Positions 8,204-61,969 of a stretch of DNA of 64,000 bases are shown in pieces (positions within the stretch are counted from its first letter, which is position 1; each line of letters opens with the position of its first letter). The position numbers and the translations under genes are program-made. The notes under the pieces were generated by a model. The model was not told the DNA's origin and made no database searches. It saw nothing but the letters and a program-made list of their open reading frames with translations. Source of the DNA: Acidimicrobiia bacterium (GTDB lineage Bacteria > Actinomycetota > Acidimicrobiia > Spongiisociales > JAOTWH01); assembly GCA_036446035.1 (NCBI GenBank), contig JAZFSG010000078.1, positions 2,674-66,673 on the forward strand, written 5' to 3'.

Positions 8204-8665
8204 ATGGAAGAGATGACCCGCGAAGACGCCCTCGCTTTTCTCACCGAGCAGCTCCTCGGTCACCTCGCCGTGATAGATGGCGACGAGCCCTACGTGAGTC
8301 CGATTTCCTATGTCGTCACCGACAACACGCTGTACTTTCGGACCCGACCGGGACGGCGCCTTTCAGTGCTCAAGACGAATCCTCGGATCTGTGTCGAAAC
8401 ATCGCTCGTCGACGATGCCGGGGGCATGTGGTCGTCCGTGTGTGCGTGGGGCAACGCCACGACCGTTGAAGACCCCCAGGTCGGTGCCACTGTGGTTTCC
8501 ATGCTCCTCGAGAAATACGCGGACTCCTCGGAATCAGTCTTGTCCTACGCGAAGGGGCCCAACCTCGGCGTGGAGGCGTCAATAGTTGAGGTGCCGTTGG
8601 ACGAGGTAACCGGCCGGGCGTCGGGCGGCGAGCTCGGAACACACGTCCGTCCGGGGCGTCTCTAA
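8204..8665 (+). CDS. pyridoxamine 5'-phosphate oxidase family (flavin/deazaflavin-binding split barrel) protein
   Basis: 153 aa. N-terminal pattern (ALAFL...GHLAVIDGDEPYVSPISYV...LYFRT) is typical of PNPOx-like proteins. Confidence 0.75.
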   Translation: MEEMTREDALAFLTEQLLGHLAVIDGDEPYVSPISYVVTDNTLYFRTRPGRRLSVLKTNPRICVETSLVDDAGGMWSSVCAWGNATTVEDPQVGATVVSMLLEKYADSSESVLSYAKGPNLGVEASIVEVPLDEVTGRASGGELGTHVRPGRL

Positions 8666-11385
8666 CCTCTGCTGGCGGAAGCGGGAACGTCTTTGCGCGA
8701 TGGGACCCACGGCCCCTCGAATGTGCGCACCCGAACCCTGGCGTCGACGACCCGTATGCCCTGGCCGGGCTCAAGCACCTTCACCGGGTTGAGGTCCATC
8801 TCGGAGATCTCGGGAATCTCGTCAACAAGCTGCGACAGGCGTTGCATAGCTACCTTCAGCTCGGCGATGTCGCCGGCCGGGTTCCCTCGGTAGCCCTCGA
8901 GCAAGCGCGCCGACTTCACTCCAGCGATCATCTCCTCGATGTCACTGTCGGTTACCGGATGGATCCTGAAGGCAACGTCGCCGATGAGCTCGACGAAGAT
9001 GCCCCCAAGGCCGAAGGCAAGGAGCGGTCCGAAGGATGGGTCTTCGGTCATTCCCAGGATCACTTCGTGTCCCCCGACAACGAACTCCTGGACGAGCGCA
9101 CTCGAAGCGTCCTCGACGACGGCGGTGACCCGCTCGAACGCCGCCGCGATCTCGTCTGCGCCAACGATGTCCAACTCAACTCCGCCGATATCCGACTTGT
9201 GCAGCGCCTTGTCCGAGATGACCTTCAGAACGACTGGCCCGTCGATGTCAGAGGCGATCGCGACCGCTTCGGCTGCGGTGGCGGCGACCCCCGACTTAGC
9301 CAAGCCGAGGCCATAGGCGCCGAGGACCGCCTCCACCTCAGCGGGCTCGAGCCATCCGCCGCCGTCCCCCATACGCGCCAGCGCCTCCTCGACCACCTTC
9401 TGCGCTTGCTTCCTCGAGACGTCCTCGAAGTGAGCGATCGTGCCCTCGGGGCGGCGACGCCATTCGCCATATGCCGCGGCGCGGGCCAGGGCCTGGGCAG
9501 CCGGCTCGGGAAACAGGTAGGTCGGCACCTGGACTCCCCCGCCCACCAACTCGGCGGGAGCACCCGATGCGTCCATGAAGACGGCGAGCATCGTCTTGGA
9601 AGAATGCTCGGCTGCCGCACGGATGGCGGCGGCGATCTCGTCGCTGCCTGTTGGTGCCGCCGGTATGTGGATGGCGATCACCGCGTCGAGTTCTTCGGAG
9701 GCGACGAGCTCGTTGAGACAGGCCGCGTACTGGCTGGCTCCGGCTGACGCGATCATGTCGACAGGATTGCGGGTAGATGCCTCAGCAGACAGGTGCCCGC
9801 GCAGCCGTGCCTGGAGCTCTGAGGAGAACTCAACGACCTCAAGGCCTTGCGACTCCAGGGCGTCTGCGGCCAGGATCCCAGGGCCGCCGGCATTGCTGAG
9901 AATGGCGACACGCCGCCCCTCCGGCACGGGCTGGTTGGCCAGGAGGGAGGTCACGTCGAAGAGCTCCTCCAAGGTCGTCGTTCGGATGACACCCGCCTGA
10001 TGGAAGAGCGCGTCGACGGCAACGTCGAGACTTGCCAGCGATCCGGTGTGGCTGGAGGCCGCCCTCGCCCCGGAGGCGGTCCTCCCCGACTTCACCGCAA
10101 CGATGGGCTTGGTACGACCGATACGCCGAGCGATACGGGCGAAGCGGCGCGGGTTGCCGAACGACTCGAGGTAGAGGAGGATGACGTCCGTGCGCGGGTC
10201 GTCCTCCCAATAGAGCAGAACATCGTTACCCGAAATGTCTGCCTTATTGCCCATCGAGATGAAGGTCGAGATACCGATGTTGAGCTGGCGGGCATAGTCG
10301 AGGATGGCGATGCCAAGGGCACCTGATTGCGACGACATGGCAACGTTGCCGGGTGGCGGATAGCGGGGTCCAAACTGTCCATCGAGGCTGATGGCTGGAT
10401 CGGTGTTGAGCACCCCCATGCAGTTGGGACCGACCATGCGCATGCCTGCGGACCTCACTACCTCGAGGAGCTCATCCTCGAGAACCTCTCCCTCGTCGCC
10501 GGTCTCGGAGAAGCCTGCGGTGATCATCACGATGCCCTTGACACCGGCAGCGGCGCATTGCCTGACAGCTTCGGTGGCAACGGCGGCGGGTACCACTATG
10601 AACGCCAGGTCAACGCTCCCCGGAACATCTCCGATACTTGGGTAGGCCTTGACGCTGGCAACAACCTCGGCCGAGGGATTCACGGGATAGATCGGGCCGG
10701 TGAACTCTCCTCCGAGCAGGTTGCGAAACAGCCGGCCGCCGATGGAGGTCTCGTTCCTGCTGGCACCGACCACCGCCACCGAGTGTGGATAGAAGATCGG
10801 CATGATCGAGGCGGCGACGGCCCGCTTCTCTCGCTCCCACTCCGCGGCGACGTGCTCGCCGGACTCAGCCGTCGGCAACTCGACCGTGTAGACGCCGGCC
10901 GAGGCCTCGTCGCGGGTGACCCCGAAGCCGGAGTTGCGGAATACGCGCAGCATGGCGTGATTGTCCGCGAGGACATATGCCTTGAAGGCCACTATGTTCC
11001 GCTGCCTGGCGTAGTCCGCGAGGCGATCGAGCAGAAGAGAGCCGACACCCCGACCCTGATGGGCGTCCTCGACCAGGAAGGCGACTTCGGCGGCGGCGGG
11101 CTCGTCCTCGAGCACGTCGTAACGGCCAATCCCGATGATCGTGCCGTCGACGATGGCAGCGAAGGCCATTCGCTTGTCGTAATCGAGGACCGTGAAGTAC
11201 TCGACTTCCTCGGGCGACAGATCGTCCTTGTCCCTCATGAAGCGCTGGTAGATGCTGCGGGGCCCTGACCTCTTGAGCAGGGCGCGCAGCTCTTCACCAT
11301 CATCGGGGCGCACCGGCCGAACGCGCATGACGCCGCCGTCCTTGAGGACGAGATCGAACTCCCAAGCCTGCGGATAGTCGCTCAT
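8662..11385 (-). CDS. GNAT acetyltransferase fused to ADP-forming acyl-CoA synthetase-like domains (Pat-type protein acetyltransferase)
   Basis: Track ORF trimmed to ATG 11385. N-terminal GNAT (HQGRGVGSLLL), then CoA-binding (VAVVGAS), ligase-CoA and a C-terminal ATP-grasp. Confidence 0.85.
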   Translation of the reverse strand: MSDYPQAWEFDLVLKDGGVMRVRPVRPDDGEELRALLKRSGPRSIYQRFMRDKDDLSPEEVEYFTVLDYDKRMAFAAIVDGTIIGIGRYDVLEDEPAAAEVAFLVEDAHQGRGVGSLLLDRLADYARQRNIVAFKAYVLADNHAMLRVFRNSGFGVTRDEASAGVYTVELPTAESGEHVAAEWEREKRAVAASIMPIFYPHSVAVVGASRNETSIGGRLFRNLLGGEFTGPIYPVNPSAEVVASVKAYPSIGDVPGSVDLAFIVVPAAVATEAVRQCAAAGVKGIVMITAGFSETGDEGEVLEDELLEVVRSAGMRMVGPNCMGVLNTDPAISLDGQFGPRYPPPGNVAMSSQSGALGIAILDYARQLNIGISTFISMGNKADISGNDVLLYWEDDPRTDVILLYLESFGNPRRFARIARRIGRTKPIVAVKSGRTASGARAASSHTGSLASLDVAVDALFHQAGVIRTTTLEELFDVTSLLANQPVPEGRRVAILSNAGGPGILAADALESQGLEVVEFSSELQARLRGHLSAEASTRNPVDMIASAGASQYAACLNELVASEELDAVIAIHIPAAPTGSDEIAAAIRAAAEHSSKTMLAVFMDASGAPAELVGGGVQVPTYLFPEPAAQALARAAAYGEWRRRPEGTIAHFEDVSRKQAQKVVEEALARMGDGGGWLEPAEVEAVLGAYGLGLAKSGVAATAAEAVAIASDIDGPVVLKVISDKALHKSDIGGVELDIVGADEIAAAFERVTAVVEDASSALVQEFVVGGHEVILGMTEDPSFGPLLAFGLGGIFVELIGDVAFRIHPVTDSDIEEMIAGVKSARLLEGYRGNPAGDIAELKVAMQRLSQLVDEIPEISEMDLNPVKVLEPGQGIRVVDARVRVRTFEGPWVPSRKDVPASASRG

Positions 11386-11440
11386 CCCCCGATTGTGCCA
11401 CGAGAACCGGGGTTCCCTACTAGGGGCTAACGTCGCTGTC

Positions 11441-12148
11441 ATGGCAAGGACTTTCACCACAAGTGGGGCACTACTCCTCGGCTTGGTGATGCTGACAACG
11501 GCTTGTGGTGACAGCGCCACCACAACTTCGGTACCACAGACGGCAGCGCCTGTCCCGCAGGGGACAACCGCGACCACACAACCTGTCGCAACGACGACCC
11601 CAATGACCACCGTTCCGGCCACCACTCAACCACCGGCCACCGAGGCCGAGCCCCCCGAGAACGCGGCGCCGGCCTTCGCCATCACCGCGGTGACCTTCGG
11701 TGACGGTGGGTTCGTGCAGATCACCAACACCGGTAACGGCGCCGGCAACCTCGATGGGCACTGGCTATGCCAGTTCCCCGCCTACCTCGAGGTGCCGTCT
11801 ACAGAGCTCGGACCGGGTGAATCTGTTTGGGTCGCTGCCAGCGGGAGCGACCTCCAGTTCGTCGGCTCCGTGGTCGGCGTCGTCGATGCCGAGGGCCGCC
11901 TTGGATCCTTCTCACTGACGACCGGCGAAATGGCCCTGTACGCGAGTCGTGACTTCGGCAGTGCCGCAGCCATCGTCGACTACGTGGAGTGGGGCGCCTC
12001 AGGACACGGCCGCTCCAGCGTTGCCGTCGAGGCCGCCATCTGGCCCGAAGGTGGCTTCGTTGAGATCCCCGACGGAACCATCTCCATCACAGCCGGCAGC
12101 GCCGGAGCGAATGACCCGGCAGCCTGGTCGCCAGATATCGGCGTCTAG
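11441..12148 (+). CDS. lipoprotein with lamin-tail-domain (LTD)-like C-terminal region
   Basis: Track ORF trimmed to ATG 11441. Signal peptide ends ...LTTAC, followed by a Thr/Pro linker. LTD-like pattern (VQITNTGNGAGNLDGHWL). Confidence 0.65.
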   Translation: MARTFTTSGALLLGLVMLTTACGDSATTTSVPQTAAPVPQGTTATTQPVATTTPMTTVPATTQPPATEAEPPENAAPAFAITAVTFGDGGFVQITNTGNGAGNLDGHWLCQFPAYLEVPSTELGPGESVWVAASGSDLQFVGSVVGVVDAEGRLGSFSLTTGEMALYASRDFGSAAAIVDYVEWGASGHGRSSVAVEAAIWPEGGFVEIPDGTISITAGSAGANDPAAWSPDIGV

Positions 12149-12151
12149 CGC

Positions 12152-12874
12152 TCAGCTGGGCTTGACGGCTCGAACCGTGATGCTGTAGACGCCACCTTCC
12201 CCCGCATTGCCGCTCTCCAGCATCTCCGGCTTGGCGAAGCCGGACTTCTCCAACCCCCCGAGATACTGCGCTTCAGGTATGGCTCCGTCAATGCACGATG
12301 CCCAGCTGTCGGGATCGGGATCGATCGGCTGTGCGTTGGTTCCGGAGACGATGTCGGAGACGACCAGACGGCCACCAGGCGCCAACACGCGGAAGGCTTC
12401 GGCGAATACGGCGCTCTTGTCGGGCGCCAGGTTGATGACGCAATTGGATAGCACGACATCGATGGAATCGTCGTCAACCGGCAGTTGCTCGATCAGCCCT
12501 TGGCGGAACTCAACGTTGCCTGCACCAACCTTGTCGGCGTTGGAGCGTGCCCGCTCGATCATGGCGGGAGTCATATCGACTCCGATGACCTGGCCGGTAT
12601 CGCCAACTTCTCGGGCCGCCAAGAAGACGTCTATGCCGGCGCCGGATCCGAGGTCCAGAACACGCTCTCCAGGCGCCAGTTCGGCCAGGCGGACGGGGGC
12701 ACCACAGCCGAGGCTCATATCGGCGCCTTGCGGTATCTGCGCCAGATCCTCAGCCGAGTAGCCCAGTTTCACACTGTCTGTGCAGCCGTCGTCGCTGCAG
12801 CATGCCGAGCCCGTCACGGCCAGGCGGCCGTAGCGATCTGCGACGACGGTCCGGATGTCCTCTGCGGATTTCAT
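12152..12874 (-). CDS. arsM: arsenite S-adenosylmethionine methyltransferase
   Basis: SAM motif VLDLGSGAGID. Conserved Cys set (CC near the N-terminus, GCG, SNCVINL, SWASC). GGAGG RBS. Confidence 0.85.
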   Translation of the reverse strand: MKSAEDIRTVVADRYGRLAVTGSACCSDDGCTDSVKLGYSAEDLAQIPQGADMSLGCGAPVRLAELAPGERVLDLGSGAGIDVFLAAREVGDTGQVIGVDMTPAMIERARSNADKVGAGNVEFRQGLIEQLPVDDDSIDVVLSNCVINLAPDKSAVFAEAFRVLAPGGRLVVSDIVSGTNAQPIDPDPDSWASCIDGAIPEAQYLGGLEKSGFAKPEMLESGNAGEGGVYSITVRAVKPS

Positions 12875-12894
12875 GAATCCTCCTATTGATGGAT

Positions 12895-12936
12895 ATCAAT
12901 ATGTTGCCATATGTATCGATATATGTCAATATGTTG
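12895..12936. promoter_or_regulatory. AT-rich arsM/arsR divergent control region with direct repeat TCAATATGTTG x2 (30-bp spacing) and central imperfect palindrome ATGTATCGATATAT
   Basis: Repeats at 12896..12906 and 12926..12936. Strongly AT-rich in a GC-rich genome. Confidence 0.4.
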
Positions 12937-12939
12937 TTT

Positions 12940-13260
12940 ATGGACCAATGTTGCCCACCCGTGTTCGGACCGAAGCTTGAGGACGGGGACGCCTCCGACC
13001 TGGCGCAGATCCTCAAGGCGGTTGCCGATCCCAATCGGCTGAAGCTGCTCCATCTCATCGCCGCCTCCGGCGAGGTCTGTGGCTGTGACCTAACGGAACC
13101 GCTCGGGCTCTCCCAGCCAACGGTCAGCCACCACCTCAACGTTCTCGCCAAGGCCGGCTTCCTCGAACGATCCCAGCGCGGCAAGTGGGCGCACTATCGA
13201 GTGGTCCCCGAGCGACTCGATCAAATCGTCGCCGCGTTCGCGTTTTCCGCTTCAGTCTGA
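12940..13260 (+). CDS. arsR: ArsR/SmtB family metalloregulator
   Basis: Track ORF trimmed to ATG 12940 (MDQCCPP...). wHTH (LSQPTVSHHLNVLAKAGF). Cys pairs CC and C-G-C at the canonical As(III) site. Confidence 0.85.
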   Translation: MDQCCPPVFGPKLEDGDASDLAQILKAVADPNRLKLLHLIAASGEVCGCDLTEPLGLSQPTVSHHLNVLAKAGFLERSQRGKWAHYRVVPERLDQIVAAFAFSASV

Positions 13261-17469: not shown

Positions 17470-18204
17470 TCACGGGTTGCGGCGAAAGAGGCCTCTTAGG
17501 GCGCGGAACGGCGCTCCGAGTGCATACATCCCTGACCTGATGGCGGCGTTGTGGCGAAGGTTCTTGGTCTGTGACCATTGGCGCTTGGGGTCAACGCACA
17601 CGACCTCCTGGGAGACCTGTCCGTCGCTTCCGAAGTGAGCTGCGACAGATCGCAGGGTGTACTGCCACATCTTGTCTTCCTTCCGACCGGCGAACAGCGC
17701 GAACGCTGCCTCGTAGATCGGATCACCTGTCCTCATCAGCACCTGTACTTGAGCCTTGGTGGCATCTTCGTCCTCGAAGGCGCTGAACGTGATCCAGCCC
17801 GCGAAAGGATGGCCTTGCGGCGTCATAAAGGTGAACGAGCGCTGGTCTGCGAAAACCACCATCACCCCGGTAGACAGCTTCACCCCACCCTGGGAGGAGT
17901 TGATGACCGCGACGTCACCCGCGTTCAGTTTGCTGAAAGGCGTGTACAGATTGTCTTTTGGCGGCCAGAACGAGGAGTAGTTCTCCTTCCAGGACCCAAT
18001 GACTTCCTCGGGAGTTGCCGATTCGCTGACCTGTACGCGGTACGTCTTCTGCCACATCTTCCCGAAGCCCTGGAGGGCACCTGCCAGCTGCCGGCCCTCC
18101 ACATTGAGATTGAGCGCCTCCGCGGGGAGGCCCGAAACCTCCAGACCCTCTGTCGGCTTGGCCCACCCCTCGTCCGGTTGTGCGTTGTCCTCTTCGTTGC
18201 TCAT
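17470..18204 (-). CDS. conserved hypothetical protein (244 aa), distal gene of the STAS operon
   Basis: ATG 18204 lies 23 nt after the STAS stop, with GGAGG 11 nt upstream. No family confidently recognised. Confidence 0.6.
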   Translation of the reverse strand: MSNEEDNAQPDEGWAKPTEGLEVSGLPAEALNLNVEGRQLAGALQGFGKMWQKTYRVQVSESATPEEVIGSWKENYSSFWPPKDNLYTPFSKLNAGDVAVINSSQGGVKLSTGVMVVFADQRSFTFMTPQGHPFAGWITFSAFEDEDATKAQVQVLMRTGDPIYEAAFALFAGRKEDKMWQYTLRSVAAHFGSDGQVSQEVVCVDPKRQWSQTKNLRHNAAIRSGMYALGAPFRALRGLFRRNP

Positions 18205-18226
18205 CTGGCGCTTGTCCTCCTTGCGG

Positions 18227-18574
18227 TCAACCGGCACTCAGCGCTTCGGCCTCGCTGCCGTAAACGACTATCGCTTCATCGATTCTCGTCAGCTGAAAAA
18301 TCTCCCGGTAGTGGTCTGTGAGTCCGTAGGCGCATAGCCGTTGCTTGTTGCGGTTGGCTCGGATCAACATCGTGACCAGCAAGCCGATCCCAGAGCTGTT
18401 CATGTACTCAAGGCCGGTGAAGTTCAAGATCACTGAAACCACCCCGTCGGCGCTGGCCTCTTCATAGGCCGCAACCAGTGCCTGGTCGGCGGTGGCGTCG
18501 ACCTCTCCGTTGATATCGATGACGGCGGCCGACTCACTCGGTCGCCGCACCGCCAGGATCAGTTTTTCAGTCAT
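18227..18574 (-). CDS. STAS-domain anti-sigma-factor antagonist (RsbV/SpoIIAA-like)
   Basis: 115 aa. Phosphorylatable-Ser motif LEYMNSSGIGLL. GGGAGGG RBS. Confidence 0.9.
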   Translation of the reverse strand: MTEKLILAVRRPSESAAVIDINGEVDATADQALVAAYEEASADGVVSVILNFTGLEYMNSSGIGLLVTMLIRANRNKQRLCAYGLTDHYREIFQLTRIDEAIVVYGSEAEALSAG

Positions 18575-18689: not shown

Positions 18690-21482
18690 CTATCCATGAA
18701 GATGCACCACTAGTTCGACTGTCGTATGGGTCTCGCCTGCGATGGTGCGCACCTCATCGACCATGTTCTCGATGAGTAGAAGACCCCAGCCGCGCGGGCT
18801 CCGCTCCCCGCTGAGACGCTCTTCTAGATCGGGCGATTGGGACTCGAGCACCTCCTCGAGATGGCCGGTATCTGTGATCGAGACGAACAGCCGCCCGGGT
18901 GCGGTCGCCACCAGGAAGTGGACGGGTAGCTCCGGTCGGTTCTTGTTGCCGTGCTCGACCGCGTTGAGCGTCGCTTCGGCAACCGCTGTCTCGAGGCGTT
19001 CTCTTTGCCGGTCGTCGATCAGCGCGCCGACGACGCTACCGACTCGCTGTGAGGCGATCCGATCTGCTCCAGCCTCACTGCTCAGCGTGAACTCGTCCAC
19101 CACCACTCGACCTGGCGGTGGTGCGGGGCCAGTTGCCGCGCTGAGGCGCCGCAAGGCGACCAATGTGACATCGTCCTCGAGGCCGTTGGCGGGCGCGGTG
19201 AACTCTGCCAGTTCCGCCATCAGATCGCCGAGCAAGCCTTGAGTGACGCGTCGATCTCGGATCCACGTCATCAGGCGTGGCTTGCCGAACATCTGCCCAG
19301 CCAGATCGTGAGCCTCGGTGAGACCGTCGCTATAGAGCAGCAGGCTCTCGCCCGGTTGGATCACCACCTCCACCTCTTCGTACTTCATCCCAGGCATCAG
19401 CCCGAGAGGCATTCCGGTTGCCTTGACCTCCCGAATCTCGTCCGACCAGATGAGCGGGAGGTTGTGGCCCGCGTTGGCGTAGGAGAGGACACCGCTCACG
19501 GGATCGACCACCGCGTATAGGCACGTTACGAACATGCTCTCCGGAGTATCCGGCACCAACAGATCGTTGACGCGTTCTAGCACGCGCCCCGGCTCGCGAG
19601 TGCCCGACGCGGTGGCAACGCCGCGCAGCATGCTCCGACAGGTTGCCATCACCATGGCGGCAGGGACCCCCTTGCCGGAGACGTCCGCGACGACAACCGC
19701 CCACCTGCCATCGGGGAGCTCGATGAAGTCGTAAAGGTCTCCGCTGACCTCGCGCGCCGGCTGATAGTGCGCGGCAAGCTCCCAGCCTTCCAGCTGGGGC
19801 AGATCCTTGGGCAGGAGGTCGCGTTGGATGCTCTCGGCCAGCTGCAATTCCTGCTGCAGGCGTTGCCTCTCCGCGGCCTGCTCAGCCTGTTGCTCAACGA
19901 GCTGGGCATAGCGAATGACCGGGGCTGCACTCTCGGCAAGCCGGCGGAGAAGTTGATGGTCAAGGCCCGAGTAGGCCCGATCGCCCAGCCGTGGACCCAG
20001 TTGGAGGACGCCAACCAGCTCCTTGTGGCTGACGAGAGGAACCACGAGGTCGACCCCCTTGGTCACGAGAGCGATCGCCGCAGCATGGCTTTGGGCAGCC
20101 AGGGGAATCGGACTATTCCCGGCATCTAGATAGACATCGGCCAGAGCGTCATGCTCGGCGGAAGCCCCCTCATCCACCAGTTCGAGATAGAGGTCCACCG
20201 CCGAAGGGCTGAGTGTCTCTCCAACCACATCGATGAGATCCCGCTCGAGCTCCGCCACATCAGACTGATCTCTGATCCGCTCGGCGAAGGCATCGACCGT
20301 GCGGTCAGCGTCGTACTTCTGGCGATAGAACCGCCTGTCGACCTGCGATTGCACTCTGGTTCGCAGCGGCTGGAAGAGGCCAACCATGAGCATGCCGGTC
20401 AGAGCCACGCCGAATCCTGGGCCGAGAGTGCTCTCGGCGAGGTTGCCGGCGATGACGGCGGCGACGACGAGCGCCAGGCCGATGACTCCCGTCAAAGTGC
20501 CGTAGACAAGGGCCCTGTTGAGGATCAAGTCCATGTCCCACAACCGGTACCGAGTTACCGACACGACGATCGACACCGGGAAGAGGACGACCGCCAGCGT
20601 AAGAAGGCTCAGCAGGTTGAGATCGTAGATGGCTTGAAGGCGGGGGGTTACCACCACAAGGCCGAGGTCGAAGTTCTGAGAGAGATCCGGGTCGATGATC
20701 CAGATGAGACCAAAGACCGCGACCACAGTGAAGAGCGAGATCACTACCAGACGAGTCTGACTTCTCACGTGTGTGCTCGAAACCCTGAAGTAGCGGTAGA
20801 CCTGCGCTACAACCACCGCCAATGCCAGGCCCAACGTCCACACCACCTGAAGGCTCTCGGGCCACTCGGCGACGTCGAAGACTGCAATGCCCGGAAAGAT
20901 GGCCCACAGAACAACCTCAGCGCTGAAGAGGACCGCGACCACGCGCATCCATTTAGCGGCGAACCGGCCTTCAGGGAACAGGAAGGCGAAGAGAACGATG
21001 GCGACTCCGGCGATGGAACGCCAGAACTCGGGGCCGGCGTCGAACACGCCCAAGGAGTGGACGGCCACCTCCCAGTCAGGCCTGGTCTGAGCAAGGACGC
21101 TGGACGGCGCGAACAACGCTGCCCCTGCGGCGAGCAGGGTTGCCGAACTGAGGGTCGCCACCCAATCGCGAGACTTCCTCAGGAAGAGAAGCGCGCCGGT
21201 GACAAAGAACAAGACAAATCCGGTTACGTGCACAGCGATCTGCCCTGCTTTGAGCACACCGGCGCCGAGGAGCCGCTCCTCGAGTTGTCGCGCCAACTCT
21301 GGCTGAACGGCAAGGGCTCCCTGAGACTCCACAAGTCCGAGATCTCCCCCGAAGAAGGCGTCGAAACTGGCGGCCGCGACGGCGGTTACCAGAGCCGCCA
21401 GTGCAAACCATCCGGCCCTCACCAACCACAGGCTGGGTCCCTCGAGCGTGGTCGCTCGATCAACGACTAGGGAGGTGGTCAT
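18690..21482 (-). CDS. polytopic membrane sensor - GAF-like - PP2C (SpoIIE) phosphatase - RsbW-like HATPase fusion protein
   Basis: 930 aa with about 10 N-terminal TM segments. PP2C motifs (REVSGDLYDF, VADVSGKGVPAA, LYSDGLTE). C-terminal HATPase_c_2-like segment (EATLNAVEHGN...GWGLLLI). ATG overlaps the TGA of the upstream gene. Confidence 0.85.
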   Translation of the reverse strand: MTTSLVVDRATTLEGPSLWLVRAGWFALAALVTAVAAASFDAFFGGDLGLVESQGALAVQPELARQLEERLLGAGVLKAGQIAVHVTGFVLFFVTGALLFLRKSRDWVATLSSATLLAAGAALFAPSSVLAQTRPDWEVAVHSLGVFDAGPEFWRSIAGVAIVLFAFLFPEGRFAAKWMRVVAVLFSAEVVLWAIFPGIAVFDVAEWPESLQVVWTLGLALAVVVAQVYRYFRVSSTHVRSQTRLVVISLFTVVAVFGLIWIIDPDLSQNFDLGLVVVTPRLQAIYDLNLLSLLTLAVVLFPVSIVVSVTRYRLWDMDLILNRALVYGTLTGVIGLALVVAAVIAGNLAESTLGPGFGVALTGMLMVGLFQPLRTRVQSQVDRRFYRQKYDADRTVDAFAERIRDQSDVAELERDLIDVVGETLSPSAVDLYLELVDEGASAEHDALADVYLDAGNSPIPLAAQSHAAAIALVTKGVDLVVPLVSHKELVGVLQLGPRLGDRAYSGLDHQLLRRLAESAAPVIRYAQLVEQQAEQAAERQRLQQELQLAESIQRDLLPKDLPQLEGWELAAHYQPAREVSGDLYDFIELPDGRWAVVVADVSGKGVPAAMVMATCRSMLRGVATASGTREPGRVLERVNDLLVPDTPESMFVTCLYAVVDPVSGVLSYANAGHNLPLIWSDEIREVKATGMPLGLMPGMKYEEVEVVIQPGESLLLYSDGLTEAHDLAGQMFGKPRLMTWIRDRRVTQGLLGDLMAELAEFTAPANGLEDDVTLVALRRLSAATGPAPPPGRVVVDEFTLSSEAGADRIASQRVGSVVGALIDDRQRERLETAVAEATLNAVEHGNKNRPELPVHFLVATAPGRLFVSITDTGHLEEVLESQSPDLEERLSGERSPRGWGLLLIENMVDEVRTIAGETHTTVELVVHLHG

Positions 21483-22939
21483 GGACCTACTCCTTGAGGT
21501 CGGGTGAGGCTCACGAGGCGCGCCATGTCATCTTCATCGAGAGCGAACATCTCAGGGTGGTCCTGTCTGAAACCGTCGGACATGGCATAGTCGCCAAACG
21601 ACACTGCCGAGTCGCCGGCGGCCTCGAATGCCGGTTGTACCGTCGGGAGATCGTGGCACTCGCCGCAGAACGGAGAAAAATGGCGGACAGGGTATGCGTT
21701 GTGGGTGAACGGATCGATCACCGGGGCCTCTTCATCGCCGGTGCCGTGACATTCGAGGCAGCTGCCCTGCGATGCCGATTCGATGCTGTGAGGGACCGGC
21801 GGCGCGATCGAGTCGGCAAGGCCGGTGCTACAGACGCCGAGCAGCAAGGCAAGACCGAGCGCCGGTGCCATGGCTGCGACGCGTGTCCGTCGCTTCGCCA
21901 AGGCCGGGGAAACCACACCGGTAGGCGCAGCAGCGATGTCGCCGGCAGCCTCCAGCGGGATACGAACCCAGAGGACGATGTAGTAAAGAAGGCCCACCAG
22001 GAAGAAAGCGCTCAGAACGAAGAGGATTCGTACGAACAGGACCGTTACTCCGAGATAGCGGGCAACTCCGGCGGCCACTCCGCCGATGAGGCGGCCACGG
22101 CGTGCCCGCCGCAGCTCTGGAGCAACGGGCGTGTCCGCGCTTGTTCCTGGCACGGACACCACTGGGCTGCGAGCTTCCCGGAGACGAGCCCGTTCCGCTG
22201 TCACCAACCAGGCGACCGCCCACATCAGCACGAGGACGCCACCCACGTAGGGACGCGCTGACGCATCGAAACGGAACCGCAACGACGCTATCCCGTAGAC
22301 CACCATCGACAAACCCGTGGTCCATGCCGCGAGGGGCCACCCCCTCACCCGCAACGCAGCGAGGTAGCCGGTGGCCAGCAGCGCCAGACCGAAAGCAGCC
22401 ATTCCCCCCCAGTGGCTTTGGTGGAAGCGCACGTTGTTGGCGGCCTTGTCGAACTCTTCGGAGAACGCGATGAGGGCAGGGAGGGTCAACATCACCATGA
22501 GGAAGAGGAGTCCGCCGGCCGGACTCACCCGGGGTCGAAAGATCTCCTGCCGCGACGGATGCAGCATCGCGATCGTCACTGCCGGAACCAGATAGATCAG
22601 CGTCGTCCACTCCCATCCGGTTGAGGCGGTCACTACGACCGTGAGAATCAAGACGACGGCAACCGCCTGCTGCATGCCTGCGATGTGGCGTTCGGGCGAT
22701 CGCAACTGGACGATCACACCCACCAGCACCATCGCCAACAGCATGCCGAAAGTGATCTCGTGCACACGATGCGAGATGTTGTCGTCGAAATCGACGAACC
22801 ATCCCAGGAACAGAGAGCTGAAAGGACTGAACAGATAGAGGAAGGCCGCGAAGGCCACAGTCAACGACACGAAGGCCGTACGCCGTCGGCCCCCGCTGCC
22901 GCGTCCCGGCGCCTGCGCAGCTATCGGCTGTGGCTCCAT
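21479..22939 (-). CDS. polytopic membrane protein with PspC domain and C-terminal di-CXXCH (putative dihaem c-type) domain
   Basis: 486 aa with about 8 TM. PspC-like RRARRGRLIGGVAAGVARYLGV plus a long TM, then a signal-like TM. CLECH at 21746..21760 and CGECH at 21653..21667. Confidence 0.75.
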   Translation of the reverse strand: MEPQPIAAQAPGRGSGGRRRTAFVSLTVAFAAFLYLFSPFSSLFLGWFVDFDDNISHRVHEITFGMLLAMVLVGVIVQLRSPERHIAGMQQAVAVVLILTVVVTASTGWEWTTLIYLVPAVTIAMLHPSRQEIFRPRVSPAGGLLFLMVMLTLPALIAFSEEFDKAANNVRFHQSHWGGMAAFGLALLATGYLAALRVRGWPLAAWTTGLSMVVYGIASLRFRFDASARPYVGGVLVLMWAVAWLVTAERARLREARSPVVSVPGTSADTPVAPELRRARRGRLIGGVAAGVARYLGVTVLFVRILFVLSAFFLVGLLYYIVLWVRIPLEAAGDIAAAPTGVVSPALAKRRTRVAAMAPALGLALLLGVCSTGLADSIAPPVPHSIESASQGSCLECHGTGDEEAPVIDPFTHNAYPVRHFSPFCGECHDLPTVQPAFEAAGDSAVSFGDYAMSDGFRQDHPEMFALDEDDMARLVSLTRPQGVGP

Positions 22940-22960: not shown

Positions 22961-23377
22961 CTACTCGACAATGATCGCTATTTCGTCCGTCAGGTCCAGA
23001 GCCGTGTGGCTACCGTCGGCCACCTGCAGGCACAACGTATGTTCACCAGGTTCGAGCTCGAGAAGCGCTGTCTCTTGACCCCCTCCGAAGTGGAGATGTT
23101 CACCATCGGCTCCGACTGTCAGGCGGGGCTGCACACACGGCCGATCGATGATGATGTGGAAGTGCCCACGCCCATCACCCACTCCCTCGCTTGCCGGCTC
23201 GATTATGAACCCCTCGGCCCCCATGACGACCGGGACCGGACTAACGACTACCGCCTCATCGCGGGGCTCCTCGAAGAATACCCTTCCCTCGGCATCGGAT
23301 GCACAGGCCGCAGTCGCCATCGCTAGCAAGACTGCCGCAAAGACGTACCGAGCCGCAGATCGTTTACCGATTCCCAT
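22961..23377 (-). CDS. lipoprotein, DUF4399-like
   Basis: Track ORF trimmed to ATG 23377 (GGGAGG 5 nt upstream). Signal peptide ...ATAAC. GHFHIIID motif. Confidence 0.65.
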   Translation of the reverse strand: MGIGKRSAARYVFAAVLLAMATAACASDAEGRVFFEEPRDEAVVVSPVPVVMGAEGFIIEPASEGVGDGRGHFHIIIDRPCVQPRLTVGADGEHLHFGGGQETALLELEPGEHTLCLQVADGSHTALDLTDEIAIIVE

Positions 23378-23536
23378 CGACGCCTCCCTGGTTTCTGAGC
23401 CCACTATCCGCTAACAGCGTCCGCCAGGCGTTACGAAAGTCGGTCATTCCGAATTTGGCGCGCCTAGCTGTACCGTTACCTGCATGCAGATATCCAGTTT
23501 TCGTCACGCAACCGAGCCCCCGCCAGCGAGGCCAGC

Positions 23537-28704: not shown

Positions 28705-28875
28705 TCGCTGGGCAGGCAGTCTTCGCTCCGAACACAAGGTCCCCCTACCGGCTTGCCAACCAGCGGCCCCAGTCCCGGAGTCTCAGTAGCACTTGGGTAA
28801 CAATTGCCCATCGGAGCCGAAGTAGGTCAGTGGCACAACAAGACCACCACCAAAAGGTCACCGGCGCCTCTCAAG

Positions 28876-28959
28876 TGCCCGGGGCAGGGCTCGAACCTGC
28901 ACGCCCCGAAGGGCCGCGGATTTTAAGTCCGCTACGTCTGCCAATTCCGTCACCCGGGC
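28876..28959 (-). tRNA. tRNA-Leu (anticodon TAA)
   Basis: Manual fold: acceptor GCCCGGG/CCCGGGC, anticodon loop CTTAAAA, long variable arm, T-loop GGTTCGAGCCC. CCA is not encoded. Confidence 0.9.
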
Positions 28960-44398: not shown

Positions 44399-44473
44399 TG
44401 GCTGGGGGGACAGGACTCGAACCTGTACTAATGGGACCAAAACCCACCGTGCTGCCAATTACACCACCCCCCA
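44399..44473 (-). tRNA. tRNA-Gln (anticodon TTG), CCA encoded
   Basis: Manual fold: U1-A72 acceptor TGGGGGG/CCCCCCA, G73, anticodon loop TTTTGGT, T-loop GGTTCGAGTCC. Confidence 0.9.
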
Positions 44474-51504: not shown

Positions 51505-51596
51505 CGCATTCATCCAGAGCGGTGGAGGGACAGGCCCCTTGAAGCCGCGGCAACCGGTGGGCGACACACGGTGCCAATGCCTGAACGATGAGCTGC
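51505..51596 (+). promoter_or_regulatory. SAM riboswitch (S-box / SAM-I clan) in the metH leader
   Basis: ATCCAGAGCGGTGGAGGGACAGGCCCCTTGAAGCCGCGGCAACC...GGTGCCAATGCC...GATGAG matches the SAM-I core. P1 pairs TTCATC (51509..51514) with GATGAG (51587..51592). Confidence 0.8.
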
Positions 51597-56588: not shown

Positions 56589-56662
56589 GGGGGTGTAGCT
56601 CAGCCCGGCAGAGCACTACGTTCGCAACGTAGGGGTCAGGGGTTCAAATCCCCTCACCTCCA
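56589..56662 (+). tRNA. tRNA-Ala (anticodon CGC)
   Basis: Manual fold: acceptor GGGGGTG/CACCTCC with G3:U70, anticodon loop TTCGCAA, T-loop GGTTCAAATCC. CCA is not encoded. Confidence 0.9.
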
Positions 56663-56664
56663 CA

Positions 56665-58081: not shown

Positions 58082-59185
58082 ATGTCACGCCGAATCGACA
58101 GGCTCCGCCCTGTTCTCCTGCTTCGGGGCCTGCGGGCAAGACGGGAACAGCCCGATCTCGCCGGGCTTGCCGCCGAGACCGACCCTCAGGCCTTCGTGTG
58201 GCAGATCCTGCCCCACGCCGCCCGCAGTTTCGCCACCAGCATCGTTGTGCTGCCGAAGGCACACGCTCTGGCAGCTGCTGTCGCCTACCTGTACTGCCGC
58301 ATGCTCGACACATACGAGGACCTGCTTCCCTCCAAGACGGCGAGACCGGAGGCGCTCCGTCTTTTCGCTCGCCGCTTCGAGCTCGATCCCATTCCAGCCG
58401 CCTCCCCGATAGATGACACTTTGGCGCGAGACGAAAGGGATCTGCTTGGCTTGCTCCTCGTGAATCGTTGCCACCTCGTCGACGAGGTACTGGACACACT
58501 TCCCGTTGCTACCAGGGAGTCCATCGCTCGGCTGGTCTCTTCCATGGCCGAGGGCATGGCGCAGTCTGTTGACACCTTCGAGCGCCAGGGCGGTGTGCTG
58601 ATCGATGCCGAGCAGGTCGCTCAGTACAGCCATCACGTCATCGGCAACCCAGCCCTCTTCGTTCTGACGCTCCTGAGTGAGGGGACGCCCACCCCCGCTC
58701 AGGAAGGGGATGCGCTGATGGTGAGCGAGATGATCCAACTGGCCAACATCACTCGGGACATCGAGAAGGATCTCCACCGGGGCGTCGGCTACCACCACAC
58801 TCTCAAGCCGTTTCTCAACGCCACCGGCGACGCCACCCAGCGACGAGAGGTGGTCCGACGAGTGCGGGAGGAGTACCTCGGCCACGCCCTGGCGGCTGTT
58901 CCCGCCTACCGGCGCCTCTTCGATGGGTCGTCGGCACGTTTGACTCCCGGGACGAGAATGGCGGCAGTTCTGATGATGCTGCACACCGACCAGCACTATC
59001 AGCGATGCGCCGTCATGACAGGCCATGAGACGTGGGGCCGGCGGCGCGGCAAGGTGCGCACGACGGCAGCCGCCCTGCCCGCCCTCCTGTCTGTGGCCGG
59101 GGCGCGCCGGACGCTGTTGAGAATCGAGAACGACTTCCTCGAGGCCGCAGCAAGACAGCGGGCACGAGCCGGGGCCGCTACCTAG
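58082..59185 (+). CDS. squalene/phytoene synthase family protein
   Basis: Trimmed to ATG 58082. Asp-rich motifs YCRMLDTYED and ANITRDIEKD. Confidence 0.75.
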   Translation: MSRRIDRLRPVLLLRGLRARREQPDLAGLAAETDPQAFVWQILPHAARSFATSIVVLPKAHALAAAVAYLYCRMLDTYEDLLPSKTARPEALRLFARRFELDPIPAASPIDDTLARDERDLLGLLLVNRCHLVDEVLDTLPVATRESIARLVSSMAEGMAQSVDTFERQGGVLIDAEQVAQYSHHVIGNPALFVLTLLSEGTPTPAQEGDALMVSEMIQLANITRDIEKDLHRGVGYHHTLKPFLNATGDATQRREVVRRVREEYLGHALAAVPAYRRLFDGSSARLTPGTRMAAVLMMLHTDQHYQRCAVMTGHETWGRRRGKVRTTAAALPALLSVAGARRTLLRIENDFLEAAARQRARAGAAT

Positions 59186-61350
59186 CGCAACAGGCGCTCC
59201 AGTATCCGTCCGGCGAGGGACGGCCGCCTGCCGAGCTCGTGAGTCCTCACCAGTAGCAATGGGGCGTCGACACGATCACGGATGCTGTCTGCGAGGTCGG
59301 TAAGGAACCGGAATCGCGAACGGAGGGCTCCCATGATCACGAGATCGGCGCCACGCGACCGTTGCGCCAGTTCAGCAACGAGTGCGTCGCTCTGAGCGAT
59401 CTCACCAACGGTGGGGACCCCGACCACGGCACCGAGTTCCTCGTGGTAGGACCGCAGGGAGTGCACCTGGCGGCCGCTGGCATTGGCCGAGAGGACGTGC
59501 ACTAGTCGAATCGTTGCGTCTTCGGCGGCCGAGATGCGGCCCGCGATGTTGATCTTGATCGGATCGAGAGGTCCACCGGAACCAAGCACCACAACGTCGT
59601 CGATGTCACCGAGATACCGGCCGCCCAGGAAGGCGAAATCGCAGAGCACCCTGTCACCGAGCCATTCCATGTCTCCCGAGAAACTACGCTCCTCCGCGCC
59701 CAAATCGGTTAGCACCAGATCAACGGCGTTGTCTGTGACAGTTGCCTCCAGCTCGGCCCGGCGATGCCGACCGGCTATCCGAACGACCGAGATGTCAAGG
59801 CCCTCGCGAGTGGCTAACGCGGCGAGGCTCCGCTCAGGCTCGCGGTCTTCATCACCGCCTGCCGAGCGGGACACAACAGCGAACTGGATGGACGCCTGCT
59901 GTGCGGCAACGGTTGATGCCGCGCGCAACAGGTCACTCAGTCTCCGCTCGTTGGTGTTGGGTCGGACCGGAATCAGAATGCGACGCTTGCCTGGGCCAGA
60001 CAGCTCGTCACGTGACTCCAGCACCAGTCGTTTCATGGCCCTCACCCTGAGGGCATCCGACCAAGCGCTTTCGGGGTTGGTCCGGGAGCGAGCGAAGACG
60101 CGGTACCAGCCAACGCCAGCGACAACGATCAGCACTGCGCCGACGATGGGCACGACGCCCATCTGGCTCAGAAAGATGAGCGGGGCGACGATCCCAACAA
60201 TCTGTATCCACGGATAGAGAGGGCTCTTGAAAGCTGGGCGATACCAGTCGAGCCGGCTCTCTCTGAAAGCGATCAGAGCCACATTCTCCATGGCGAAGAC
60301 GAGAAGCAGAAAGGCCGACGCCAGTTTCGCCAGCTCGAGGATCGGGAAGACGATGATCAGGACAAGAAGCACGCTGCCGGTAAGCACCACCGAGGCGACC
60401 GGAGTTCCGCGCGGCCCGATGCGGCCGAGAGCGCTGGGGGCCAGTGCATTGCGCGCCATCGCCATCGGGTACCGCGATGACGCCAGGATTCCCGCGTTGG
60501 CCATCGAGAGGAGGGCAAGCACGGCGACAATGCTGATGGCGAACTCGGCACCGTTGCCGGCGACGGCTTTTGTGGCAAGGGCGACCGGCGTCGCGCTCTT
60601 GTCGAGATCGCTGGCTGGAGTGACCCCAACGATCACGAAGGCGATCGCCGGGTAGAGGAACAGCATGATCATGATGCTGGTGAGGATTCCCCGGGGAATG
60701 TTGCGAGCGGGTCGGCGGACCTCTTCGGCAATGCTGGCGATATTGGTGACTCCGGCGTAGGAAACGAACACGATCCCCGTCGCCGCCAAGAGCCCGCCAT
60801 AGCCCTTTGGCAGGAAGGGTTCGAAACGGTCGGTGTCGATGTCGCCGACACCAACGAACACGAAGATGGCAAGCGCGATGAGGACAGCGGACACGATCAC
60901 CGTCTGGAAACGCCCCGAGTGACGGACGCCGTACACGTTCACAACTATGAGGGCCGCACCAAGCCCAAGCGCGATCATCTTCACCGGGGCACCCTCGAAA
61001 CCGAGCTTGAGGTATTCGCTTAGCCCCTCAAGCGCGAACGCCGACTTGAAGACGAGAGAGAACCACACGCCGAAGCCGGCGATCGTTCCCAGCAACGGGC
61101 CCATGGCCCTGTCGATGTAGAGGTAGGTGCCGCCGGCGTGCGGCATCGCGGTGGCCATTTCCGACTTGCTCAAGGCGGCCGGCAGGACGATGAGCCCGGC
61201 GAGGGCATAAGCCACAACGATTGCCGGGCCGGCAACGGAGGCGGCCAATCCGGGGAGGACGAAGATGCCGCTTCCCACCATCGCACCGATGCTGATGGTG
61301 AGTACGGCGTATAACCCGAGGTCGCGCTTCAGATCCAGAGGCGGCTCCAA
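59182..61350 (-). CDS. APC-superfamily amino acid permease fused to C-terminal tandem USP-like domains
   Basis: About 12 TM N-terminal region (SIGAMVGSGIF...) plus a ~280-aa cytoplasmic region with two USP-like halves (ILIPV..., VVVLGSGG...VIMGA). Confidence 0.85.
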   Translation of the reverse strand: MEPPLDLKRDLGLYAVLTISIGAMVGSGIFVLPGLAASVAGPAIVVAYALAGLIVLPAALSKSEMATAMPHAGGTYLYIDRAMGPLLGTIAGFGVWFSLVFKSAFALEGLSEYLKLGFEGAPVKMIALGLGAALIVVNVYGVRHSGRFQTVIVSAVLIALAIFVFVGVGDIDTDRFEPFLPKGYGGLLAATGIVFVSYAGVTNIASIAEEVRRPARNIPRGILTSIMIMLFLYPAIAFVIVGVTPASDLDKSATPVALATKAVAGNGAEFAISIVAVLALLSMANAGILASSRYPMAMARNALAPSALGRIGPRGTPVASVVLTGSVLLVLIIVFPILELAKLASAFLLLVFAMENVALIAFRESRLDWYRPAFKSPLYPWIQIVGIVAPLIFLSQMGVVPIVGAVLIVVAGVGWYRVFARSRTNPESAWSDALRVRAMKRLVLESRDELSGPGKRRILIPVRPNTNERRLSDLLRAASTVAAQQASIQFAVVSRSAGGDEDREPERSLAALATREGLDISVVRIAGRHRRAELEATVTDNAVDLVLTDLGAEERSFSGDMEWLGDRVLCDFAFLGGRYLGDIDDVVVLGSGGPLDPIKINIAGRISAAEDATIRLVHVLSANASGRQVHSLRSYHEELGAVVGVPTVGEIAQSDALVAELAQRSRGADLVIMGALRSRFRFLTDLADSIRDRVDAPLLLVRTHELGRRPSLAGRILERLLR

Positions 61351-61407
61351 ATGGAGGATGTGATTGAAGGAGCCTAGAGGGGTGGCGCCTACGACACGGG
61401 TAGCGGC

Positions 61408-61905
61408 CTAGAAGTCGAAGGGGAACCCATGGACCTCAACGCCTTCCTTCCAGGTCGGCTGGTTCTCTCTCAGATCCATGAACATGTCGATGTGTCCAAG
61501 GATGTTGAACCCGGCTCGATGGAAGGCCCGGATGGCATCAACATTGCGAGCCACCGGCCGAATTGTGAGATGAGCAACACCTCTCGCCAGCGCCTCCCGG
61601 CGCAACTCCTCGAGCAACCTGGCACCGACACCGCGAGAACGGTGCTGCTCTGTGACAACGATGGGCTCAACCTCTGCCTCGCCGCCGTCAAGCAGCAACC
61701 CGGCCATGCCAACCACTTGCCCATCCACCTCGGCGAGCCAGATTCCTGCCAGGCGAGAGTCGGCCAGAAGGGAATCGAAATCAGCCGCCGGGTCGGAGCC
61801 GCCAATAGACGGCGACTCGTAGATGAGGCGGTGGCGCTCCGTGAGTTCCACCCACAGGGCACGGCACACCGCTTCGTCCGCTGGTCCGAACATCCGAATC
61901 GGCAC
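61408..61905 (-). CDS. GNAT family N-acetyltransferase
   Basis: Motif A, QHRSRGVGARLL. Confidence 0.85.
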   Translation of the reverse strand: MPIRMFGPADEAVCRALWVELTERHRLIYESPSIGGSDPAADFDSLLADSRLAGIWLAEVDGQVVGMAGLLLDGGEAEVEPIVVTEQHRSRGVGARLLEELRREALARGVAHLTIRPVARNVDAIRAFHRAGFNILGHIDMFMDLRENQPTWKEGVEVHGFPFDF

Positions 61906-61969
61906 GCCACGAAGGTAGCGGGCAATACAGCGGTGAATGGTGCCGCGGCAACCGCTGTGACGGGCCCGT

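Follow-up and report, generated by a model that had tools for sequence, protein, structure and literature searches.

The window analyzed here, a stretch of 64,000 nucleotides from an Acidimicrobiia bacterium (contig JAZFSG010000078.1), carries on its minus strand a gene (21479..22939) for a 486-amino-acid (aa) membrane protein in which an eight-helix domain with five conserved histidines is joined to a PspC domain, a further membrane helix and a tail with two CXXCH motifs. The gene overlaps the start of a second one, encoding a membrane-bound PP2C phosphatase with an RsbW-like kinase domain, and a gene for a STAS protein follows. Taken as a whole, these features are best explained, with a probability that we put at roughly 0.55, by an extracytoplasmic haem-c redox co-sensor that would drive a PP2C/RsbW-like/STAS partner switch. 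The inputs of PP2C partner switching are mostly unknown, and a conserved, co-translated and sometimes fused partner would offer a concrete one, namely redox.

The gene and its NapB-like tail

The 486-aa open reading frame has an identical database twin (MEE8331206.1), which NCBI names 'MAG: PspC domain-containing protein [Acidimicrobiia bacterium]' (MAG, metagenome-assembled genome), and a search of the window for paralogues of the protein found none. Its features are given below (TM, transmembrane; K/R, lysine/arginine; AF2, AlphaFold2). Alignment A1 comprises 25 relatives and alignment A2 comprises 21 homologous tails; A3 is a further alignment.

21479..22939, minus strand: whole gene, encoding the 8-TM five-His domain, PspC (read as a hairpin), a putative signal-anchor helix, the NapB-like dihaem cytochrome c domain and an acidic C-terminal extension
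22169..22939, minus strand: N-terminal 8-TM domain, aa 1-257, with the N-terminus predicted inside (hydropathy, K/R distribution, AF2)
22757..22771, minus strand: motif H57-R-V-H60-E61 at the outer end of TM2, invariant in A3
22556..22564, minus strand: motif L126-H127-P128 at the inner end of TM4, conserved across the superfamily
22409..22423, minus strand: motif H173-Q-S-H176-W177 at the outer end of TM6, invariant in A1 and A3
22259..22270, minus strand: motif F224-D-A-S227 in the outer loop between TM7 and TM8, invariant in A1 and specific to the dihaem-tailed group
21953..22117, minus strand: PspC domain, aa 275-329, whose two helices, the first cryptic, stand on either side of conserved Arg304 and are read as an in-in hairpin (Pfam, published two-TM description, parity and K/R)
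21824..21895, minus strand: KRRTR and last TM helix, aa 349-372, a putative signal-anchor for export of the tail, with an equivalent anchor in every family member
21644..21808, minus strand: NapB-like dihaem cytochrome c module, aa 378-432, with PPVPH384, CLECH398, TH413 and CGECH429 (tail profile, conservation)
21482..21643, minus strand: acidic extension of the C-terminus, aa 433-486, whose last part is a weakly conserved amphipathic helix (D-x3-[VIL]A-x-LV; A1 columns ~545-575)

The two CXXCH motifs, CLECH (residues 394-398, 21746..21760) and CGECH (residues 425-429, 21653..21667), lie where the original prediction, made from the sequence alone, had located them, with their first cysteines 31 residues apart. 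Given the local amino-acid composition, CxxCH is expected by chance about 5.6e-4 times per 110 residues, and in the frames of the window that are open from stop to stop over at least 100 aa it occurs three times in total, two of them in this protein. Both motifs are kept in essentially all homologues, down to 28% identity, so that the lack of conservation that the original prediction had raised as a point against itself is not observed. The low expected rate, the rarity in the window and the conservation in homologues together exclude chance as the origin of the pair. Among the tailed homologues, defined as proteins with at least two CXXCH motifs and a length above 330 aa, 85 of 85 have CXXCH near the C-terminus, and each individually listed one has exactly two. 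The cysteines and histidines of the motifs vary little or not at all in A1 and not at all in A2. The invariant positions of A2 are H12, C22, C25, H26, C53, C56 and H57, and a further conserved histidine lies between its two motifs. The resulting ligand set, two CXXCH motifs and two distal histidines, is sufficient for two bis-His haems, and the covalent attachment of two such haems c can be predicted.

When compared with the sequences of the PDB, the A2 profile matches three NapB chains, 1OGY_B (E=8e-8), 1JNI_A (7e-7) and 3ML1_B (9.2e-7), over profile positions 6-62, in an alignment that runs through PPxPH, CxxCH, the distal histidine and the second CxxCH and covers all six haem-binding or ligating positions; the next-best matches are to other c-type cytochromes, at E-values of 3e-4 or weaker. 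The comparison of the tail with known families that the original prediction had suggested thus leads to NapB (E=8e-8 to 9e-7), and its understanding of CXXCH as a haem-c motif gains further from the family-wide conservation of both motifs and of two extra axial histidines. The single tail sequence yields spurious thioredoxin and RING matches in the PDB, NapB being seen only with the family profile. Judged by its sequence profile, the tail is a NapB-like dihaem cytochrome c module and not a NapB orthologue; we use the former term because the Pfam NapB model (PF03892) reaches 13 bits on the tail of the 486-aa protein, against a gathering threshold of 25.1, and because no napA lies nearby. Weak Pfam NapB matches are present in 17 of the 21 relatives (best E=5.5e-4), and Cytochrome_C7 scores E=0.027 on the tail alone. 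A zinc or Fe-S role for the CXXCH pair appears unlikely.

On the other side of the balance stand the single-sequence Pfam scores for NapB, Cytochrome_C7 and Paired_CXXCH_1, all below their gathering thresholds, the low AF2 confidence across the tail, and the absence of a WWD (CcsA/ResC-type) motif from the 64-kb window and from 374 kb of related loci, some 0.4 Mb of scattered flanks that say little of a whole genome. Actinomycetota generally use System II, made up of CcsBA/ResBC and CcdA, for QcrC.

The tail carries 19 aspartates or glutamates and 4 lysines or arginines. At its extreme C-terminus (21506-21544, minus strand; residues ~466-478) an amphipathic helix of the form D/E-x3-[VIL]-A-x-L-V-R-x-[IL] is weakly conserved in many members; AF2 draws a helix at residues 469-478 with low confidence, as measured by the predicted local distance difference test (pLDDT), and this element may serve for docking.

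The eight-helix domain and its phosphatase partner

The 25 relatives in A1 have in common an N-terminal domain of ~255 aa and the dihaem tail, and only some of them present the PspC segment; those without it reach the tail through the anchor helix alone or through a two-helix insert, not of PspC type, and the anchor. On the evidence of these alignments, the conserved unit of the family is the 8-TM five-His domain with the anchor helix and the dihaem tail, and PspC is not its core. The original prediction had named PspC as one part of the fusion; with carriers counted by a local PspC hidden Markov model (HMM) and Pfam, it proves to be an optional insert, found in ~15 of the 85 tailed proteins collected. 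The dihaem-tailed members were found only in Acidimicrobiia or in unclassified Actinomycetota MAGs.

Both hydropathy and AF2 assign eight helices to the N-terminal domain, these being long in the AF2 model, where the pLDDT, averaged over blocks of 10 residues, is ~79-97 across the TM2-TM8 core, and the distribution of K/R residues places the N-terminus inside under the positive-inside rule. Four of the five conserved histidines form two HxxH motifs that would lie at the outer membrane surface. Those of TM2 are 92-94% conserved even in stand-alone relatives, those of TM6 are 94-99% conserved across the superfamily, and the TM4 motif retains its histidine in 88-99% and its proline in 96-100% of sequences. 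Residue D225 of the FDAS motif is conserved at 100% in the tailed group and is unconserved in stand-alone forms.

A profile of this domain returns only noise from Pfam (e.g. DUF6234, DUF998 and MerC at E>0.02) and no match at all from PDB sequences, while Foldseek comparison of the AF2 model with the PDB gives a best E-value of 0.23 and TM-scores of 0.3 or less, with no usable fold match. It is, therefore, apparently a new membrane domain family without a Pfam or PDB counterpart. An exhaustive profile search recovers 765 representative clusters (50% identity) at E<=1e-3 and 401 at E<=1e-10. The top matches longer than ~330 aa all have two CXXCH motifs, and most of the weaker ones are stand-alone 8-TM proteins of 250-300 aa in which all five histidines are kept at 92-99%. 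In a few relatives a single anchor helix leads to a C-terminal cupredoxin (PF00127, E=1.3e-8) and not to a cytochrome:

L027:2793-4166 and L029:1848-3251: cupredoxin-tailed P0192 and P0148 (also P0128), with a blue-copper C..PGH..GM motif after the 8-TM domain and one anchor helix

In both of these loci a TetR gene lies divergently and a PP2C gene is lacking; L027 also has an FTR1 iron permease gene nearby. The fusions to cytochrome c or cupredoxin in a large unannotated membrane superfamily point to extracytoplasmic redox chemistry. An internal duplication of the domain (TM1-4 versus TM5-8) was considered, since hhalign aligns the HxxH motifs in register, and was rejected as too weak (P=0.014, probability 3%).

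The genes around the 486-aa gene are as follows:

22961..23404, minus strand: secreted His-rich DUF4399 protein, 147 aa, the first operon gene in the closer clade (Pfam DUF4399, E=4.6e-21)
18690..21482, minus strand: coupled partner, 930 aa, with a 10-TM N-terminal domain, a GAF-like region, a SpoIIE PP2C domain and HATPase_c_2 (RsbW-like kinase) (Pfam)
18227..18574, minus strand: STAS protein, 115 aa, probably the phosphatase/kinase's phospho-substrate (Pfam STAS, E=2e-11, 44.1 bits)
17470..18237, minus strand: p255, a conserved 255-aa protein and last operon gene, with no Pfam match, co-occurring with STAS and HATPase in L001, L003, L009 and L024
23537..26410, plus strand: divergent BTAD-AAA_16-TPR (SARP/AfsR-type) regulator (Pfam)

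The stop codon of the 486-aa gene and the start codon of the 930-aa gene overlap as ATGA, with an AAGGAG Shine-Dalgarno sequence 7 nt upstream. This arrangement fits the translational coupling that the original prediction had described, and the link between the two proteins is made much stronger by adjacency in other loci and natural fusion. In Pfam the partner scores 182.6 bits for SpoIIE (E=9.8e-54) and 66.8 bits for HATPase_c_2 (E=2.5e-18), and with the STAS protein the window holds a partner-switching set of PP2C phosphatase, HATPase_c_2 and STAS. A PP2C membrane-domain homologue (440 aa) adjoins the family gene in every locus with enough flank (~20 loci, drawn from separate assemblies, with N-domain identity down to ~31%), usually directly downstream, sometimes divergently and occasionally in reverse order. 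The remaining genes are less widely shared: HATPase_c_2 and p255 are confined to the closer clade, DUF4399 lies upstream only in L001-L004, and the BTAD regulator is found only in L001-L004 (divergent) and in L024 (on the opposite strand, upstream of a rearranged cluster). STAS lies downstream in the closer clade, and in L018, a distant locus, it likewise comes after the PP2C gene. No napA, napC or molybdopterin oxidoreductase gene was found in the operon of the window or among those related loci for which gene tables were examined. In the literature, DUF4399 receives incidental mentions only.

In three proteins (P0081, P0215 and P0216) the 8-TM domain, without a cytochrome tail, is fused to a TM-GAF-SpoIIE(-HATPase) protein. 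The fusion is present in three of the five members of its cluster (1031-1191 aa), each on a separate contig, one of 4.3 Mb. Because such a Rosetta-stone fusion exists, the 8-TM and PP2C membrane domains would be expected to cooperate directly. The 10-TM N-terminal domain of the PP2C protein itself (20358-21482, minus strand; residues 1-375) belongs to an unannotated family, in which RYRLWD..NRxLVYG and PxRxRxQxxxDRRFYR are conserved, and has two outer loops (~30-45 aa).

Several observations pull against a redox co-sensor. The window operon encodes no sigma factor or other output target, an ECF-type (extracytoplasmic function) sigma gene being found upstream only in the distant locus L005. The lineage with the fusion has lost the cytochrome tail, so that the haems are dispensable in at least one version of the system. 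The superfamily consists mostly of stand-alone proteins, and neither the two stand-alone nor the two cupredoxin-fused relatives with readable contigs, which are short, have a PP2C neighbour; the primary role of the 8-TM domain may not be signalling.

Along these lines, the 8-TM protein could be a redox or metal-handling device rather than a sensor, its His-lined domain forming a metal channel, metallochaperone or redox site with an exchangeable one-electron carrier outside (a cupric or ferric reductase, for instance), which the PP2C would merely regulate or respond to. This is the strongest of the alternatives, and it can draw on the conservation of the five histidines over 765 representative clusters, most of them stand-alone, on the relatives that swap cytochrome for cupredoxin beside TetR, one of them with FTR1 and none with a PP2C neighbour, on the fact that NapB itself is an electron-transfer subunit and on the secreted His-rich DUF4399 protein encoded directly upstream in the closer clade. 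We nonetheless regard it as rather unlikely: each dihaem-tailed member with enough flank adjoins the same membrane PP2C, and one lineage fuses the 8-TM domain to PP2C and drops the redox tail, which is hard to square with a purely catalytic or transport role. Moreover, the operon has no conserved partner of the oxidoreductase or transporter kind, and neither Pfam nor PDB sequences or folds link the domain to known metal transporters.

Membrane topology and the PspC insert

The Pfam PspC model (PF04024) matches residues 275-329 of the 486-aa protein with 56.3 bits (E=2.7e-15; gathering threshold, 25), in agreement with the PspC domain of the original prediction, whose signature stretch, RRARRGRLIGGVAAGVARYLGV, is indeed present and occupies residues 277-298, beginning at residue 277 and not 276. 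The segment has the helix pattern of the domain, LIGGVAAGVARYLGVTVLFV, then R304, then ILFVLSAFFLVGLLYYIVLWV, that is, two hydrophobic helices flanking a conserved arginine. PspC has been described as a pair of TM helices, of which the first is cryptic, flanking such an arginine (PMC11237479); its topology is predicted as N-in/C-in by TOPCONS, and topology ambiguity has been reported for the E. coli protein (PMC3068692). The 486-aa protein is not a PspC orthologue of the Psp regulon, its scores being 32.9 bits against a cut-off of 104 for TIGR02978 and 28.9 against 136 for NF007973, and the window operon contains no PspA, PspB, LiaF or Toastrack gene. In a neighbor-joining tree of the N-terminal domain, which carries no support values, all PspC members fall in one of two major clades, mixed with members that lack PspC. 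This suggests a single gain of PspC followed by losses or degeneration, repeated gain being an alternative history that is also compatible with the tree. A degenerate-PspC origin of the two-helix inserts in P0006-P0012 was considered and dropped, the local PspC HMM giving non-significant E-values of 0.4-4.

The hydrophobic stretch nearer the tail (KRRTRVAAMAPALGLALLLGVCS, residues 349-371) had been taken for an internal signal peptide (349-374). It corresponds instead to the last TM helix, a predicted signal-anchor that is kept in every family member and shows no evident conservation of a cleavage site. Reading LLLGVCS as a lipobox was also rejected: the valine at -1 is non-canonical and the cysteine is not conserved in homologues.

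An even number of membrane crossings by PspC is the necessary and sufficient condition for a tail on the outside. A cytoplasmic tail was among the outcomes that the original prediction had listed as refuting it, and here the evidence divides: a simple hydropathy count gives 10 TM helices, which places the tail in the cytoplasm, and AF2 draws the hydrophobic stretch of PspC as one long helix (300-334) and not as a hairpin, whereas helix parity, K/R distribution and the published PspC model all place the tail outside. Between the 8-TM domain and the tail, all non-PspC members have one or three helices; PspC members have PspC plus one helix (P0001-5, P0007 and P0079) or PspC plus three (P0072, P0086, P0087, P0090, P0091 and P0095). 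If PspC is a two-helix hairpin, the number of helices after the 8-TM domain is thus odd throughout the family. Nine helices are present in insert-free members, and the cupredoxin relatives are likewise built as 8+1; in bacteria, blue-copper domains are generally found outside the cytoplasm, so that a like orientation would suit these relatives. With regard to charge, the PspC members have K/R-rich loops immediately after PspC and ahead of the last helix, and in the 486-aa protein KRRTR stands directly ahead of this helix and the acidic tail follows it. Comparative parity, charge distribution and the published two-helix PspC model speak for an outer location against the literal count, and we regard a tail on the outer side of the membrane as well supported but not proven. 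If this is true, the family would constitute a natural topology reporter, in which PspC makes an even number of crossings. Its comparative evidence bears on the long-debated topology of PspC.

One member, P0099, has a CxxC...CxxC zinc-ribbon-like insert (residues ~165-185) in the linker just before the anchor helix, which fits a cytoplasmic linker.

If the hydropathy count of ten helices and the single AF2 helix for PspC are instead taken literally, the protein could be a PspC-type envelope-stress sensor with a cytoplasmic tail, the CXXCH pair of which would bind zinc or Fe-S, as might also be argued from the NCBI name, which mentions the PspC domain only, and from the lack of maturation genes seen in the window. 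We consider this very unlikely, given that most family members lack PspC and yet keep the tail and the PP2C partner, and that the tail matches NapB at all six haem-binding or ligating positions. The nine helices of insert-free members, the 8+1 layout of the cupredoxin relatives, the KRRTR directly ahead of the last helix with the acidic tail after it and the published description of PspC as a two-helix unit (PMC11237479) stand against it as well. That separate genes were joined into this three-part architecture by an error of assembly or gene calling can practically be dismissed, for although the source is a MAG and some entries are clearly truncated or frameshifted (e.g. P0015 and P0050), the reading frame is continuous, with a plausible Shine-Dalgarno sequence and start, the same architecture of 486-490 aa recurs in four independently assembled close relatives (84-100% identity), and more distant PspC-bearing members originate from other samples.

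Returning to the haem-c redox co-sensor, the protein would be an 11-helix membrane protein made of the eight-helix five-His domain, a two-helix in-in PspC hairpin and a final signal-anchor, the last of which would export the small NapB-type domain, predicted to carry two covalent bis-His haems c. The redox state of these tethered haems might mirror that of the extracytoplasmic milieu or of the respiratory chain and be relayed to the 8-TM domain, whose partner within the bilayer could be the N-terminal 10-helix domain of the PP2C/RsbW-like enzyme translated along with the protein. This bifunctional phosphatase/kinase would then set the phosphorylation of the STAS protein and, with it, the partner-switching output, the PspC hairpin being an accessory of one clade that plausibly adds sensitivity to membrane stress or proton motive force (pmf).

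A broader proposal, which we put forward only tentatively and consider clearly less probable than the co-sensor itself, is that the five-His 8-TM domain represents an unrecognized class of sensor or relay with its own metal or haem site on the outer face, supplied by tethered one-electron carriers that can replace one another (NapB-like dihaem c or cupredoxin). In Acidimicrobiia it might be complexed in the membrane with the 10-TM PP2C, so that extracellular or respiratory redox would gate partner switching, with PspC adding a membrane-stress or pmf input in one clade. All the members stem from Acidimicrobiia that have not been cultured; the group is widespread in soils and the sea, and very little experimental work exists on its signalling.

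Known systems and other features of the window

The tail resembles NapB, the dihaem subunit of periplasmic nitrate reductase, in presenting PPxPH, CxxCH, a distal histidine and a second CxxCH in the same order and spacing over ~55-65 residues, from which an extracytoplasmic electron-transfer module with two bis-His haems would follow by analogy. In contrast to NapB, which is a soluble subunit with a signal peptide, it is tethered to a polytopic membrane protein, and its genomic partner is a PP2C phosphatase, with no napA or napC nearby.

The PP2C neighbour, in turn, is reminiscent of SpoIIE, RsbU/RsbP and SiaA in combining a SpoIIE-type PP2C with an RsbW-like HATPase_c_2 and in being followed by a STAS gene. 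Bacillus subtilis SpoIIE has an N-terminal membrane domain of roughly 10 helices, as does this neighbour. Its scores against the NCBIfam equivalogs of SpoIIE, SiaA, RssB and RsbW are, however, all far below the cut-offs, and unlike those known systems it has a membrane domain from a family of its own, one that occurs together with the 8-TM/dihaem protein.

Covalent haem c outside the membrane, here predicted, is already established as a signalling input. The haem-c PAS-like chemoreceptors of Geobacter are extracytoplasmic sensors of this kind. A Cache-derived domain that binds nitric oxide and has acquired a CXXCH motif is also reported to provide covalent haem c input to a signalling protein (PMC12889525). 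These sensors are single-haem PAS or Cache domains located on the output polypeptide (a methyl-accepting chemotaxis protein, kinase or cyclase), whereas in the present case the predicted dihaem module, of NapB type, belongs to a separate 8-TM protein and a PP2C/anti-sigma-kinase/STAS partner switch would provide the output.

Similarly, actinobacterial fusions of PspC to histidine kinases, LiaF-TM or Toastrack share with the 486-aa protein a genuine PspC domain that passes the Pfam threshold and has the conserved arginine, and the PspC-kinase fusions also share its location inside a multi-TM signalling protein without PspA in the operon. They differ in that the partners here are a dihaem cytochrome c and the five-His 8-TM domain, the output is a PP2C and PspC is optional. 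The original prediction knew of no PspC-cytochrome c fusion, and a broad survey of phage shock protein (PSP) architectures likewise names no cytochrome, haem or PP2C partner, with zero occurrences of cytochrome, heme, SpoIIE and PP2C (PMC11237479). The architecture is one that the published survey of PspC lacks.

PspC, NapB-like dihaem cytochromes, PP2C/RsbW/STAS switching and haem-c sensor domains feeding signalling proteins (e.g. PMC12889525) are known kinds of element. A combination of PspC with a cytochrome, a cytochrome c partner of a PP2C partner switch (none among the listed results of an open-access literature search aimed at it) and the 8-TM five-His superfamily were not found described.

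Beyond the operon, the window contains the following features:

12886-13260, plus strand: ArsR-family helix-turn-helix gene, divergent to the next
12152-12874, minus strand: S-adenosylmethionine (SAM) methyltransferase gene with an N-terminal Cys-rich stretch
8662-11625, minus strand: 987-aa GNAT acetyltransferase fused to ADP-forming acyl-CoA synthetase-like domains (CoA_binding, Succ_CoA_lig and ATP-grasp_5), which is the architecture of Pat-type protein lysine acetyltransferases
51507-51594, plus strand: SAM riboswitch RF00162 (69.4 bits)
28875-28959, 44399-44473 and 56589-56663: tRNA genes for Leu-TAA, Gln-TTG and Ala-CGC, respectively

The first two genes (12152-13260) presumably form a pair resembling the ArsR/ArsM arsenic-methylation pair. 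Finally, the AT skew peaks at +0.21 (20001-22000) and +0.19 (60001-62000), over long minus-strand genes for polytopic membrane proteins, namely those of the operon described above and that of a 722-aa protein (59182-61350), and we read these peaks as an effect of codon composition rather than as a replication signal.

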